A stretch of DNA of 64,000 bases from Vulcanimicrobiota bacterium (GTDB taxonomy: Bacteria; Vulcanimicrobiota; Vulcanimicrobiia; Vulcanimicrobiales; Vulcanimicrobiaceae): positions 13,769 through 77,768 of the forward strand of contig DAIDGX010000026.1 of assembly GCA_027452165.1 (NCBI GenBank). The letters run 5' to 3'. Under the pieces are notes generated by a model. The model made no database searches. It was not told where the DNA came from and saw nothing but the letters and a program-made list of their open reading frames with translations. Positions 13,598 through 20,793 of this stretch are shown here, piece by piece; the stretch's first letter is position 1; the number at the start of each line of letters is the position of its first letter. Position numbers and translations under genes: made by a program.

Positions 13598-14371
13598 GTG
13601 AAGCGAGCTCTAACTTTAGCAGCGATGCTTGCCGGCGCGGCGATCGTGACCGGACAAGCCCTCGCAGCAGGCACCGTGAACCAATATGGTTCCGTTAAAC
13701 TCCAGTGGAACGTCGCGGTAGCGATGAACGCCGCCGTCCACACGAACTACACCGGCGCTTTCGCCAACGGTGGCGCCAGCGCGACCGTCGATTATCCCGC
13801 GGGTGCGGGATCGTGCGGCGGCGCATCGCCCGTGACCGTGACCGGTCAGACCGACCTAAACATCGTGTACGGAACGATCACCCCGTCGTTTAGCGGCACC
13901 ACCGGTTGTAATTACGAGAACGCCGTCGGCGTCTCGGTGCAGACCAACGATTCGAGCGGTTTTGCGGTGTACGAGTACCTCGACACGGCCCTTCCGTCCG
14001 GCACCAACCTCTGCGCCTTCCCGAATAACGCCACGAAGACGTTCCCCATCACGGCCGCAGCTTCGATCACGACGTCGCAGTGGACGACCGCCCCTGCTGC
14101 CTACTCCGGTTCGTGCGCAGCAGGCGGTGCCTCGCTGACCAATGCCGGCACGATCACGAACGCTGGCGTCGCTCCGGTCCAGCCGAGCGCCACCTACACC
14201 GGCGAGTATGCCTCGGCGGCAGCCGCGACCGGCCAGCAGTTTATCAACTACACGACGGCTGCCGGAACGGCGGTCCTCGCGGGTGAAGATCTGCAGTTGA
14301 ACGTGGCAAGCAGCGCAGCGTCGGGTACCAACATCTCCGACGTGATGACGCTCCAGTTCGTCGCGAACTAA
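13598..14371 (+). CDS. Secreted small subunit-like protein with the shared beta-rich module (paralog of 19385-20062)
   Basis: GTG at 13598 with AAAGGA 8 nt upstream. Signal peptide VKRALTLAAMLAGAAIVTGQALA. Motifs GSVKLQWNV and VSVQTNDSSGFAVYEY. C-terminus MTLQFVAN-stop. Confidence 0.7.
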   Translation: MKRALTLAAMLAGAAIVTGQALAAGTVNQYGSVKLQWNVAVAMNAAVHTNYTGAFANGGASATVDYPAGAGSCGGASPVTVTGQTDLNIVYGTITPSFSGTTGCNYENAVGVSVQTNDSSGFAVYEYLDTALPSGTNLCAFPNNATKTFPITAAASITTSQWTTAPAAYSGSCAAGGASLTNAGTITNAGVAPVQPSATYTGEYASAAAATGQQFINYTTAAGTAVLAGEDLQLNVASSAASGTNISDVMTLQFVAN

Positions 14372-14417
14372 TCAACGAACTGGCAACGACTGATAGGAGA
14401 GATTCGTCGAACCGAAT

Positions 14418-15209
14418 ATGACGGGTGGAATGAAACGGTACTTCCGGGCCCTCGTGGCCACCGCCCTGGTCGTTCTCGCGACCGCATATCCGGCTACGGC
14501 GGATCTCTCTCTTGATGTCGCACCGGCGAAGATCGAGATGCAAGTCACTCCGGGAACGCCACAAACGATCCCCATCACCGTTCGAAACAGCAGCGCCTCA
14601 CCGATGCACATTCAGGCGACGCTCGTGGACTACAAAGTGGGGCCCGGAGGGGACTACATCTTCTCAAAACCGGGAACCGATCGCTTCTCGCTCTCGAAAT
14701 GGGCAACGGTCAACCCGCGCGAGTTTGATATCCCGCCTAACTCGTTTCAACTCGTGCGCATGACCATCAACGTCCCACACGGCATCTCCGGTGAGTATTC
14801 GGGCATCGCATTTTTCCAAACGCGGCCCCTGCGTCATCAGGGTGGCGGGATCTCGTTCTCGGAGCGTGTAGCGTCAAAGGTATACCTCTACAGCGGAGCG
14901 ATTCGCTTGGACGGTGCCGTTGACGACATAGCAGTGAAGCAGACGCCGATCGGCCAGCGGTTTCTCATCGGATTTAAAAATACGGGTAACGCGCATCTTT
15001 ATCTGAACGGGCGCATCGAAATTCGCAAAGGATCGGACGTGGTGGCGCGCGTCCAGCTTCCACAGCAACAGCTTGTCGAGCGCGGCGGTCGCCGCATCAT
15101 CGAAGCGTACAGTCAGAAACTTCCCGCCGGAAGATATACGGCGCTCGCGCTGATCGATTTCGGCGGACCGAATCTCGCAGGCGGACAGACCTCGTTCGTC
15201 GTTAAGTAG
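14418..15209 (+). CDS. Secreted protein of two beta-sandwich domains, resembling PapD-type chaperones or DUF916/DUF3324 (CscA/WxL-interacting) proteins
   Basis: 263 aa. Signal peptide ...LVVLATAYPATA. First half: LDVAPAKIEMQVTPGTPQTIPITVRNSSASPMHIQATLVDY...WATVNPREFDIPPNSFQLVRMTINVPHGISGEYSGIAFF. The second half has a similar strand pattern. There is no C-terminal TM. Confidence 0.6.
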   Translation: MTGGMKRYFRALVATALVVLATAYPATADLSLDVAPAKIEMQVTPGTPQTIPITVRNSSASPMHIQATLVDYKVGPGGDYIFSKPGTDRFSLSKWATVNPREFDIPPNSFQLVRMTINVPHGISGEYSGIAFFQTRPLRHQGGGISFSERVASKVYLYSGAIRLDGAVDDIAVKQTPIGQRFLIGFKNTGNAHLYLNGRIEIRKGSDVVARVQLPQQQLVERGGRRIIEAYSQKLPAGRYTALALIDFGGPNLAGGQTSFVVK

Positions 15210-19385: not shown

Positions 19386-20062
19386 TGAGCGCCCGCCTTC
19401 GTATCGCTGCATCCGTCACCGCTGCCCTCACGCTGCTCGTGACGCTGAGTTGCGCGCGCGCCATCGCTCAATCCAACGGCTCGGTCAAGCTCCAGTGGAA
19501 GATCGTGCCGATCGTCAACCTGACGGTCACGCCAAACTATCAAAGCGGTTTCGGGCCGCAGGGCGGTGCCGGTTCTGGCTCCACGCCGGCGCCCGGAGGC
19601 GGTGCGTCGCTCGGCGGCGGCGTCGTCGATTTCGGCAATCAGGTTGTCCAAGGCTATGCGTATTTGTATAAGTATGCGGTGAAGACTACGGTGCAGACCA
19701 ACGACGCCGCCGGCTTCACGCTGTACGCTGAAGGAACGACCGACGTCAACGATCTGACCGCCGGTGGAACCCAGCCGCTCAATCAACTGCTCTTTTGGCT
19801 GTTCTCGAGTCCGGGTAACTCACCATTTTCATCGGCGACACCGTTCCAGCCGACCGCCTCGACCGTAGGCTGCGGCGGAACCTGCATTAATTACGTCGGC
19901 ACGCCTCCGCCCACGGCGGCGGTATGGAGCTATTCCTCCTCCACAATCGGTCAGCCGGGTAACTCGGTGTCGCAGGGTTTCGATTACCAACTGCGCCTCT
20001 ATAGCAGCCCGCCGCCCGACAGCTTTAGCGTGTATATTGTCTATACGGCGGTGGGAAATTGA
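19385..20062 (+). CDS. Secreted small subunit-like protein with the shared module
   Basis: The ATG overlaps the upstream TGA by 1 nt. A signal peptide is present. Motifs GSVKLQWKI, VVDFGNQVV and TTVQTNDAAGFTLYAEG. Ends SVYIVYTAVGN-stop. Confidence 0.7.
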   Translation: MSARLRIAASVTAALTLLVTLSCARAIAQSNGSVKLQWKIVPIVNLTVTPNYQSGFGPQGGAGSGSTPAPGGGASLGGGVVDFGNQVVQGYAYLYKYAVKTTVQTNDAAGFTLYAEGTTDVNDLTAGGTQPLNQLLFWLFSSPGNSPFSSATPFQPTASTVGCGGTCINYVGTPPPTAAVWSYSSSTIGQPGNSVSQGFDYQLRLYSSPPPDSFSVYIVYTAVGN

Positions 20063-20793
20063 AGAAGCTGCTCTTCGCGTTCGCTCTGGTCGCGCTCGGT
20101 GTCGCGTTCTTCGGAACAGCGCAGGCCTTCCAAGTGCAACTCGGGGTCAAACAAATTTCGGTCAACTTTACCGTTACGCCCTCGCCGATCGCCTATGCGC
20201 CCACGAATGCAACCGGTGTGGCCGTCGCTGCGAACGGCGCTACCTTTGCGTCGTTTGAGAACGTCGCGGACTATTTGGGCAAGGCCGATCCGCTCGCGTC
20301 CATTGTTGCCTACGAACCGATGAACATCGGCGACATGGTCGCTCAGTCGAATCAAGCGGGCGTGAAGGTGCAGTTCACGGTAAAGGTCGATCCGACGTAT
20401 CAGTATTTTCATCTCATCCCGGTGAACACGAATCTAAATGCGGGCTATGGCGCGAACACTTATACGTGCTCGTTTCAGGTGTTCGCAAAATACGCGACGG
20501 CCTGGACGATCACTGATTATGCGTATGGGAGTAGCAGTTCGGGGAATACCCAAGGTCTTGGCGGCTTCCCGCTCTACAACTACGCGACGACGAGTGACCT
20601 TGCGTGGTTAGCAGAGACGATTACGACCTCATATAAGGCCTATGCTAACGCAGGTTCACCGGGTGAAACGGTTTTTGCCGGAGCAGCGGGCAGTTCAAAG
20701 ACCATCTGTATTGACTTAAACCTGTCGGTGCCGGCGTCGATCCCGGCCGGAACCTATACAGCGACGATTAGTTACCGTATGGTTCACAACTAG
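20059..20793 (+). CDS. Secreted small subunit-like protein with the shared module
   Basis: The TTG start overlaps the upstream stop (TTGA). Signal peptide MKKLLFAFALVALGVAFFGTAQA. Motif FQVFAKYATAWTITDY. Ends IPAGTYTATISYRMVHN-stop. Confidence 0.7.
   Translation: MKKLLFAFALVALGVAFFGTAQAFQVQLGVKQISVNFTVTPSPIAYAPTNATGVAVAANGATFASFENVADYLGKADPLASIVAYEPMNIGDMVAQSNQAGVKVQFTVKVDPTYQYFHLIPVNTNLNAGYGANTYTCSFQVFAKYATAWTITDYAYGSSSSGNTQGLGGFPLYNYATTSDLAWLAETITTSYKAYANAGSPGETVFAGAAGSSKTICIDLNLSVPASIPAGTYTATISYRMVHN

Follow-up and report, generated by a model that had tools for sequence, protein, structure and literature searches.

A six-gene cluster of Eremiobacterota coding for a putative PapD/WxLIP-type chaperone and secreted β-rich proteins with constrained C-termini

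The 64,000-nucleotide stretch of Vulcanimicrobiota bacterium DNA analysed here (the window; assembly GCA_027452165.1, contig DAIDGX010000026.1, positions 13,769 to 77,768 of the forward strand) carries a set of six closely packed genes on its forward strand, named A to F. The explanation that we favour, with a probability of roughly 0.55, is that in Eremiobacterota (= Vulcanimicrobiota, WPS-2) the genes A to F make up a conserved operon, specific to the lineage, for a donor-strand type of surface fibre or adhesin assembled with the help of a chaperone. Product C looks like a soluble periplasmic chaperone related to PapD and to the WxL-interacting proteins (WxLIP), and B, D, E and F are its candidate subunits. 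An earlier description of this DNA (the original prediction), made from the letters and their open reading frames, had singled out B, D, E and F for a shared β module closed by an invariant terminal Asn, possibly a distinct assembly or sorting signal. The ending is better explained as the last strand of a subunit fold whose position, more than its final residue, is conserved.

Conservation of the cluster and its chaperone

The cluster is restricted to one lineage. Homologues of E number 164, and every one whose source is named comes from Eremiobacterota. The E-family profile has 40 matches among 1.84 billion representative proteins, and outside the family these are only B-like proteins. A scan for related loci, keeping one genome per species, gave 51 loci, all from Eremiobacterota where the record names the lineage, and all six genes are detected in most of them. 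Most loci have the gene order A-B-C-D-E-F, a deep-branching group has A-B-C-E-F-D and a single locus has A-B-D-C-E-F (loci noted for variation of gene order are L007, L023, L043 and L045-L050). Since the same six families are kept across three gene orders, the cluster behaves as a functional unit rather than a case of frozen synteny. C is found in every locus with sufficient upstream DNA except the aberrant fragment L051, so that the homologues do stand beside a partner of the 263-amino acid (aa) type, a point raised by the original prediction. In L003, L013, L014, L029 and L044, some copies of B, E, A or D are truncated or fused, or run on into the gene that follows, owing to frameshifts, pseudogene formation or errors in assembling the metagenome-derived genomes. 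Distant members of the E family (P0135, P0137-P0139, P0143, P0145, P0147, P0148 and P0151; E-values 1e-24 to 1e-9) begin with signal peptides of the lipoprotein type, in which a Cys follows L-x-A or a similar sequence, and do not have the GS-V-x-L-x-W start described below. Such proteins could be forms of the subunit that are anchored in the membrane.

Of the six products, C is the best conserved (mean column identity 65%). Its AlphaFold model has a predicted local distance difference test (pLDDT) score of 92.1, and the top three Foldseek matches of this model are 9i1y_B, 9i1y_A and 9i25_C of Enterococcus faecium WxLIP, solved alone and bound to a long WxL protein (E 2e-12 to 5e-12, template modelling (TM) score 0.52-0.59). 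About 40 of the top 50 matches are chaperones of chaperone-usher systems (E 4e-10 to 2e-7); those matched include YadV, CsuC, CfaA, CupB2, FimC, Caf1M, DraB and SafB. Sequence profiles point the same two ways. C of the window scores 21.2 bits against Pfam DUF916 (PF06030, DUF916/WxLIP_PGBD), just below the cut-off of 27.3, all 41 of 41 C orthologues match this family (best E 2.9e-6), and P0193, which is 58% identical to C, passes the cut-off. The C-family profile also matches EfmWxLIP1 (E = 2.7e-4). The Pfam scan gives no PapD_N match for C itself; P0219, which is 26% identical to C and is aligned to it over the full length (phmmer E = 1.2e-19, hhalign 99.6%), passes the PapD_N model (PF00345) with 29.8 bits for a cut-off of 23.

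C has no C-terminal membrane helix. It ends in a β-strand (..GGQTSFVVK) with no hydrophobic tail, and DUF3324, the other domain expected of WxLIP, has no match in any C orthologue. The two-domain fold found by Foldseek is that of both WxLIP and PapD, and its association with a signal peptide and no membrane anchor is as in PapD-like chaperones. Its model suggests that C is a soluble two-domain chaperone of the periplasm, of the PapD/WxLIP type. Lys38 is nearly invariant among the orthologues and Lys154 is invariant, the latter within the motif ER[VI]ASK[VI]Y that forms the last strand of domain 1. In PapD-type chaperones basic residues of the cleft, Arg8 and Lys112 in PapD itself, hold the terminal carboxylate of the subunit. 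The C orthologues themselves almost always end on a basic residue (R 28, K 8 and H 8 of 46), after ..GGQxxxTV.

Subunit domains and their C-terminal ends

The model of E (pLDDT 78.6) is a β-rich domain of ten strands that follows the signal-peptide helix, with a low-confidence loop ahead of the domain. Its best fold match is the archaeal bundling pilin AbpA (7ueg; E = 5e-3, TM about 0.3), followed by the FimA, PapA, CfaB and Csu pilins (E 0.02-0.2, TM about 0.3). The matches are weak but one-sided, in that the pilins listed all link their subunits through a donated strand. Directly after their signal peptides, B and E have a conserved stretch, GS-[VA]-x-L-x-[WY]-x-V.., of strictly alternating hydrophobic and polar residues. 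In B the hydrophobic fraction at positions 33-47 alternates between 0.92-1.00 and 0.00-0.26; positions 34-40 and 44-48 of E also alternate, and F has a similar stretch. In the E model this N-terminal strand pairs with no other, and a long Gly/Pro-rich loop comes after it. By analogy with donor-strand pilins, this strand of B and E is the likely donor strand. D orthologues have no amphipathic strand in common at the N-terminus, which would suit a subunit placed at the tip. The segment GPVQTTWRLV near the D N-terminus, considered as a GSVKLQW-like strand, is conserved in no orthologue and was rejected. Profiles of E, of the D C-terminus and of A gave nothing informative against PDB sequences.

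B, D and E are related to one another. B and E match over their N-terminal halves only (BLASTP E = 2e-8; hhalign of the orthologue alignments 98.7%). The alignment of E with the C-terminal ~140 residues of D (hhalign 73%, E = 3e-5) starts at the D-F-G strand and reaches the final residue, the three motifs being collinear, and B aligns with the same domain of D on the middle motif (hhalign 51%). In D orthologues the W and L of the middle motif, a near-invariant W-x-L, are conserved together with the terminal N. F aligns with E over the last 43 columns only (hhalign 15%) and gives no hhalign match to D. On sequence comparison, the three-motif module is supported for B, D and E; membership of F is not established, this protein sharing at most the C-terminal strand region. 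The original prediction had drawn the module in all four proteins, with a middle strand written as V-x-[TS]-[ND]-[DA]-x(2-4)-[FW]-x-[LVI]-[YT]. Its relation thus holds for three of them, and its pattern exactly for B (VQTNDSSGFAVY) and E (VQTNDAAGFTLY) only: the spacer of D has five residues, not two to four, and F orthologues do not keep the stretch proposed for that protein. The GSVKLQW reported as common to the 257-aa and 225-aa proteins is confirmed, and it is conserved in both families.

The four C-termini that it quoted are read as such from the translations, and so are the different endings of A and C (Table 1). The six frames of the window contain 597 segments between stops that are 60 aa or longer. 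Thirteen of the segments end in Asn, and phi-V-x-N is the ending of B, D, E and F alone, which shows that the pattern is real and not due to chance. The Asn itself is not invariant, as had been claimed. It is terminal in 38 of 41 D orthologues (mostly ..TLTYTL[IV]AN, with ..TFTW[IV]SN in distant copies), in 36 of 49 E orthologues (S, K, R, T or P standing at the same position in the others), in 17 of 38 B orthologues (S in 10, Q in 6, R in 2, and others) and in 13 of 43 F orthologues (P in 13, as ..YNLYVTLP, and Y in 10). Full-length close homologues of E keep it in 115 of 117 cases, and deeper relatives lose it, YTVV being followed there by PS, AK, PQ, SH, P, L and others. What every family retains, over about 50 species and down to 24-30% identity, is a chain that stops 1-5 residues past the last amphipathic strand. 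The position of the C-terminus is under constraint, and this constraint is probably tied to assembly. To this extent the idea of an assembly signal survives, detached from the Asn; the shared ending is probably the last strand of the subunit fold and not a new sorting signal.

Two explanations of the ending were set aside. Asn-specific chemistry such as isopeptide formation is rejected as a general cause, since most B and F orthologues have another residue in place of Asn. The C-terminal signal of outer-membrane barrels is rejected because the proteins are small soluble β-rich domains; the window proteins end in Asn instead of the terminal aromatic residue of such barrels, and the E model best matches soluble pilin subunits.

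The module also recalls the WxL domain. In canonical WxL proteins, taken from enterococcal, listerial, lactococcal and lactobacillal plasmid loci, an N-terminal strand and a low-complexity linker are followed by ..[DN]-x-x-S-N-x-x-F-G, by V-x-[VD]-x-R-G-x-x-x-G-W-x-L and by an end of the form ..T-[LI]-x-W-x-L-x3-P. The elements of B, D and E come in the same order, and the middle motif of D (ASVRSDANSPNSWVLYV) has DVRDTRLPSTSPWQLT as its counterpart in the solved long WxL protein. The first W-x-L is near-invariant in D orthologues, and B and E have F-x-[LV]. The second WxL Trp is Y or F in all four window proteins; some D orthologues end in F-T-W-[IV]-S-N, and the YNLYVTLP end is found in many F orthologues. 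The C-terminal 25 residues of F align to the region of WxL motif 2 (hhalign 19%). The C-terminus of a canonical large WxL protein gives no match to PDB sequences. The resemblance to WxL is architectural, and formal membership of the Pfam WxL family is not demonstrated.

Assembly model, gene layout and alternatives

The cell envelope of Eremiobacterota has an inner membrane, a thin peptidoglycan and an outer membrane with lipopolysaccharide (PMC9758169, PMC6664022), so that a surface structure has to cross the outer membrane. Protein A begins with a signal-peptide-like sequence and a Pro-rich linker; some 450 aa of β-rich sequence, CarboxypepD_reg-type domains in three matched stretches, and a C-terminal region follow. 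The CarboxypepD_reg-type domains are all that Pfam finds in it, and they are found in 30 of 30 orthologues. A is a candidate envelope or outer-membrane component on three grounds: where it lies in the operon, the requirement for a component of this kind, and the existence of an analogous locus. The analogous locus belongs to a different organism (L052:2828-8578, on a JGI metagenome contig). It codes for a PapD_N chaperone (hhalign to C 99.6%) beside three small proteins (177, 168 and 180 aa). A middle W-x-L occurs in two of these (SWNLNL, EWTLRM), and the three end in FTLSAP, TLTQTVP and LTLTSP. The small proteins have no Pfam match, and hhalign against B, E, F, D and WxL is not significant. 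A 944-aa protein of the same locus has a β-rich middle region and, by inspection, a CarboxypepD_reg-like segment.

The donor-strand model would work as follows. Sec would export all six products, and C would cap the newly exported subunits, completing their fold beside the last strand. B, E and probably F would be small β-sandwich subunits; D would be a large subunit with the same domain type at its extreme C-terminus, built like both two-domain tip adhesins and "large WxL" proteins. The module would be the subunit domain itself, its D-F-G strand, V-x-T-N-D-x-x-G-[FW]-x-L hairpin and last strand corresponding in order to the three WxL elements. The last strand and the free carboxyl end probably dock on the chaperone and later on the neighbouring subunit. 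Since the carboxylate would be held in the cleft, no extension past the last strand would be tolerated and the final residue would need only to be small or polar, Asn being the commonest choice and not a required one. The N-terminal strands of B, E and perhaps F would replace the chaperone strand and so link the subunits. D would sit at the tip and present its N-terminal part of ~1200 residues, and A would handle passage through the envelope or anchoring. Pro-rich low-complexity linkers of ~60-150 residues follow the signal peptides of A (10113-10640) and D (15279-15600), as they do in the orthologues, and could span the periplasm.

Several results weigh against this model. All fold matches of the E model have E-values above 0.001, and its 50 best do not include 9i25_A, the WxL chain of solved structure. 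B, D, E and F have no Pfam WxL (PF13731), Fimbrial or SCPU match, in searches of the six proteins at E <= 1 and, for the C-terminal domains of 41 D orthologues, at E <= 10; hhalign of B, E, F and the D C-terminus against canonical WxL alignments gives 1-19%, with local matches on the corresponding motifs. F cannot be linked to the module by sequence. The usher model (PF00577) has no match in A or its 30 orthologues, and the profile of A matches no usher among PDB sequences. The middle region of A has no detectable relative, its homologue search having returned one match, with low-complexity words filling the candidates, and the hhalign score of 29% between A and the 944-aa protein comes partly from the common CarboxypepD_reg domain. 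The signal-peptide-like starts of all six products (basic start, hydrophobic core, A-x-A-type site) were assigned by eye.

The alternative that survives best takes the likeness to WxL clusters literally. These clusters comprise small WxL proteins, a large WxL protein and a DUF916-DUF3324 protein (PMC9772566, PMC10599100), and the WxL domain is always at the extreme C-terminus (PMC9772566). A C-terminal domain in small and large forms and a DUF916-related protein are found here too, so that the make-up of the cluster agrees with the published definition; WxLIP bound to a long WxL protein is among the best structural matches of C, and the order of the motifs is that of WxL. The original prediction had dismissed kinship with both WxL and chaperone-usher proteins, which was premature in view of the affinities of C and of this motif order. 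The products could then build a WxL-type surface complex of fixed composition, held together non-covalently, in which C is a permanent scaffold, no donor-strand polymerisation takes place and D presents binding domains outward. We regard this as rather unlikely. C has neither the membrane helix nor the detectable DUF3324 that define WxLIP, and the Pfam WxL model has no match. Moreover, WxL domains are thought to bind peptidoglycan on bacteria devoid of an outer membrane, whereas Eremiobacterota have one. The alternating N-terminal strand and the presence of three small paralogues suit polymerisation better.

The genes of the cluster and its upstream neighbour are listed in Table 1. D and E share 1 base, and E and F overlap by 4 bases. 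Scans of the six proteins with Pfam and NCBIfam find CarboxypepD_reg in A and the sub-threshold DUF916 in C and nothing else, no model of either database being matched by B, D, E or F. A scan of the cluster for promoters and terminators gave a number of sites not above chance expectation.

Table 1. Genes A to F, their conserved motifs and the adjacent flagellin gene (positions in the window)
Feature	Coordinates	Strand	Description
Flagellin gene	8598..9830	-	Pfam Flagellin_N (1.9e-31) and Flagellin_C (2.6e-9); divergent from gene A
A	10113..13430	+	1105 aa; first gene of the conserved cluster; ends FVIGP
B	13598..14371	+	257 aa; candidate small subunit; ends MTLQFVAN
B, N-terminal amphipathic strand	13688-13738	+	
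B, middle motif	13931-13978	+	
B, C-terminal end	14345-14368	+	MTLQFVAN
C	14418..15209	+	263 aa; putative two-domain PapD/WxLIP-like chaperone; signal peptide; ends SFVVK
C, conserved motif	14712-14729	+	NPREFD
C, conserved motif	14811-14834	+	FFxTRPxR
C, conserved motif	14862-14891	+	ER[VI]ASK[VI]Y
D	15279..19385	+	1368 aa; candidate large subunit; signal peptide, Pro-rich linker, long family-less region; ends TLTYTLVFN
D, C-terminal module	18960..19385	+	residues about 1228-1368
D, first motif	19011-19034	+	IDFG
D, middle motif	19068-19118	+	ASVRSDANSPNSWVLYV
D, C-terminal end	19356-19382	+	TLTYTLVFN
E	19385..20062	+	225 aa; candidate small subunit; ends VYIVYTAVGN
E, N-terminal strand	19478-19507	+	GSVKLQWKIV; followed by Gly/Pro-rich loop
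E, first motif	19622-19648	+	VVDFG
E, middle motif	19685-19735	+	
E, C-terminal end	20030-20059	+	VYIVYTAVGN
F	20059..20793	+	244 aa; third small secreted protein; ends ISYRMVHN
F, C-terminal stretch	20716-20790	+	LNLSVPASIPAGTYTATISYRMVHN

A flagellin orthologue occupies the same position and orientation in 38 of the 51 loci, across all gene orders, and no other gene flanking the cluster is kept with it, the neighbours on the downstream side recurring in just 5 and 1 loci. In the window, the intergenic region 9831-10112 contains GTATCGGC, which on the opposite strand reads as a -10 element of the sigma-28 type, and a sigma-28-like -10 element (GCCGATA-) lies at consistent distances in the flagellin/A intergenic region of 25 of 34 loci. 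Furthermore, the related-locus scan gave no locus named Vulcanimicrobium alpinum, a cultured species reported to have no flagellin gene, a single case with no dedicated test. The cluster could on these grounds encode accessory, sheath-like or anchoring proteins that work with the divergent flagellin in a flagellum-associated structure. This is improbable: no other flagellar genes adjoin the cluster in the window, we know of no flagellar component that uses a PapD-like chaperone, and the adjacency may equally reflect a reciprocal control of motility and adhesion, which is compatible with a donor-strand fibre. Upstream of the flagellin gene, at 7000-8292 (-) and 5680-6993 (-), there are also a gene for a MgtE-type magnesium transporter (MgtE_N and CBS domains) and, adjoining it, one for a 437-aa multi-pass membrane protein that by eye resembles a metal-ion transporter.

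Lastly, we give very little credit to a terminal Asn acting as a dedicated sorting, processing or covalent-attachment signal read by a specific machine, which the strikingly similar endings of the four window proteins, unique among the 597 segments, and the retention of Asn in D orthologues and close E homologues would favour: Asn is a minority ending in B and F, and S, Q, R, K, T, P, Y or L stands in its place in most orthologues of these two, in 13 of 49 E orthologues and in nearly all distant E relatives, gene order and partner proteins are unchanged where it is replaced, and the conserved block offers no candidate processing enzyme. With the possible exception of D, a sorting or chemical signal that depends on Asn is therefore unlikely.

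Comparison with known systems

B, D, E and F, which match no Pfam or NCBIfam family, gain from the donor-strand model a testable role in an abundant and barely cultured soil phylum, and genome annotation could spot the cluster via its chaperone. A wider version of the model is put forward tentatively. In it, WxL-like subunits would be polymerised by donor strands with the help of a soluble WxLIP/PapD-type chaperone and would cross the outer membrane through A, a novel translocator unrelated to ushers; the system would be phylum-wide and its operon coupled to flagellin. If true, this fibre system would join the WxL clusters of Gram-positive bacteria and the chaperone-usher pili of Gram-negative bacteria.

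The chaperone-usher pili, classical (Fim/Pap) or archaic (Csu/CupE), likewise rely on a soluble periplasmic chaperone of two-domain fold. They also have several small subunits with an N-terminal strand of alternating hydrophobicity, a large subunit with a C-terminal pilin-like domain, a C-terminal strand that ends the protein, and a host with an outer membrane. The Eremiobacterota cluster differs by having no usher (PF00577), no Fimbrial or SCPU domain and a weak pilin fold match. C is closer to WxLIP than to PapD, and the protein endings are polar (N, S, Q), not aromatic.

The TasA-like archaeal bundling pili have a β-sandwich subunit with a donated N-terminal strand, and their AbpA is the best single match of the E model. 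However, this match is weak, and the cluster has no SipW-type peptidase; to our knowledge the assembly of AbpA uses no chaperone. In the Pam pili of the Candidate Phyla Radiation, membrane-anchored PapD-like chaperones are proposed to drive the formation of donor-strand pili (2026 preprint, bioRxiv 10.64898/2026.03.03.709456), which sets a precedent for pili of this kind beyond the classical systems. The likeness, compared by description only, lies in a lineage-restricted operon, PapD-like chaperones, Ig-like donor-strand pilins and the absence of a classical usher. In contrast to C, the Pam chaperones are membrane-anchored; the Pam host has no outer membrane, and the Pam pilins are two-domain proteins with a linker strand.

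The WxL clusters of Firmicutes (Csc or Lwp-Swp-WxLIP; PF13731 with DUF916-DUF3324) likewise encode small secreted proteins of nearly a single domain, one large protein carrying the domain at its extreme C-terminus and, as the closest structural counterpart of C, a DUF916-related partner with two Ig-like domains. The domain is alike in its N-terminal strand, long low-complexity linker, x-F-G, V-x-D/N-x..G-[WF]-x-L hairpin and last strand with [WYF]-x-L near the end. However, the Trp is mostly Tyr or Phe in the Eremiobacterota proteins, the final Pro is usually absent and the match to the WxL model is not significant. C has neither a detectable DUF3324 nor a membrane helix, the host has an outer membrane, and there is no LPXTG protein, and a 1105-aa CarboxypepD_reg protein is added.

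An anchorless WxLIP-like chaperone, an outer-membrane host, WxL-like subunits and the absence of an usher, brought together in one cluster, point to a common principle. WxL clusters and chaperone-usher pili may be branches of it, with β-sandwich subunits that are capped by a chaperone and whose last strand ends the protein. Such a principle would sharpen the question of WxL-domain function, which is still unsettled, and it raises that of how fibres of this kind cross an outer membrane in the absence of an usher.

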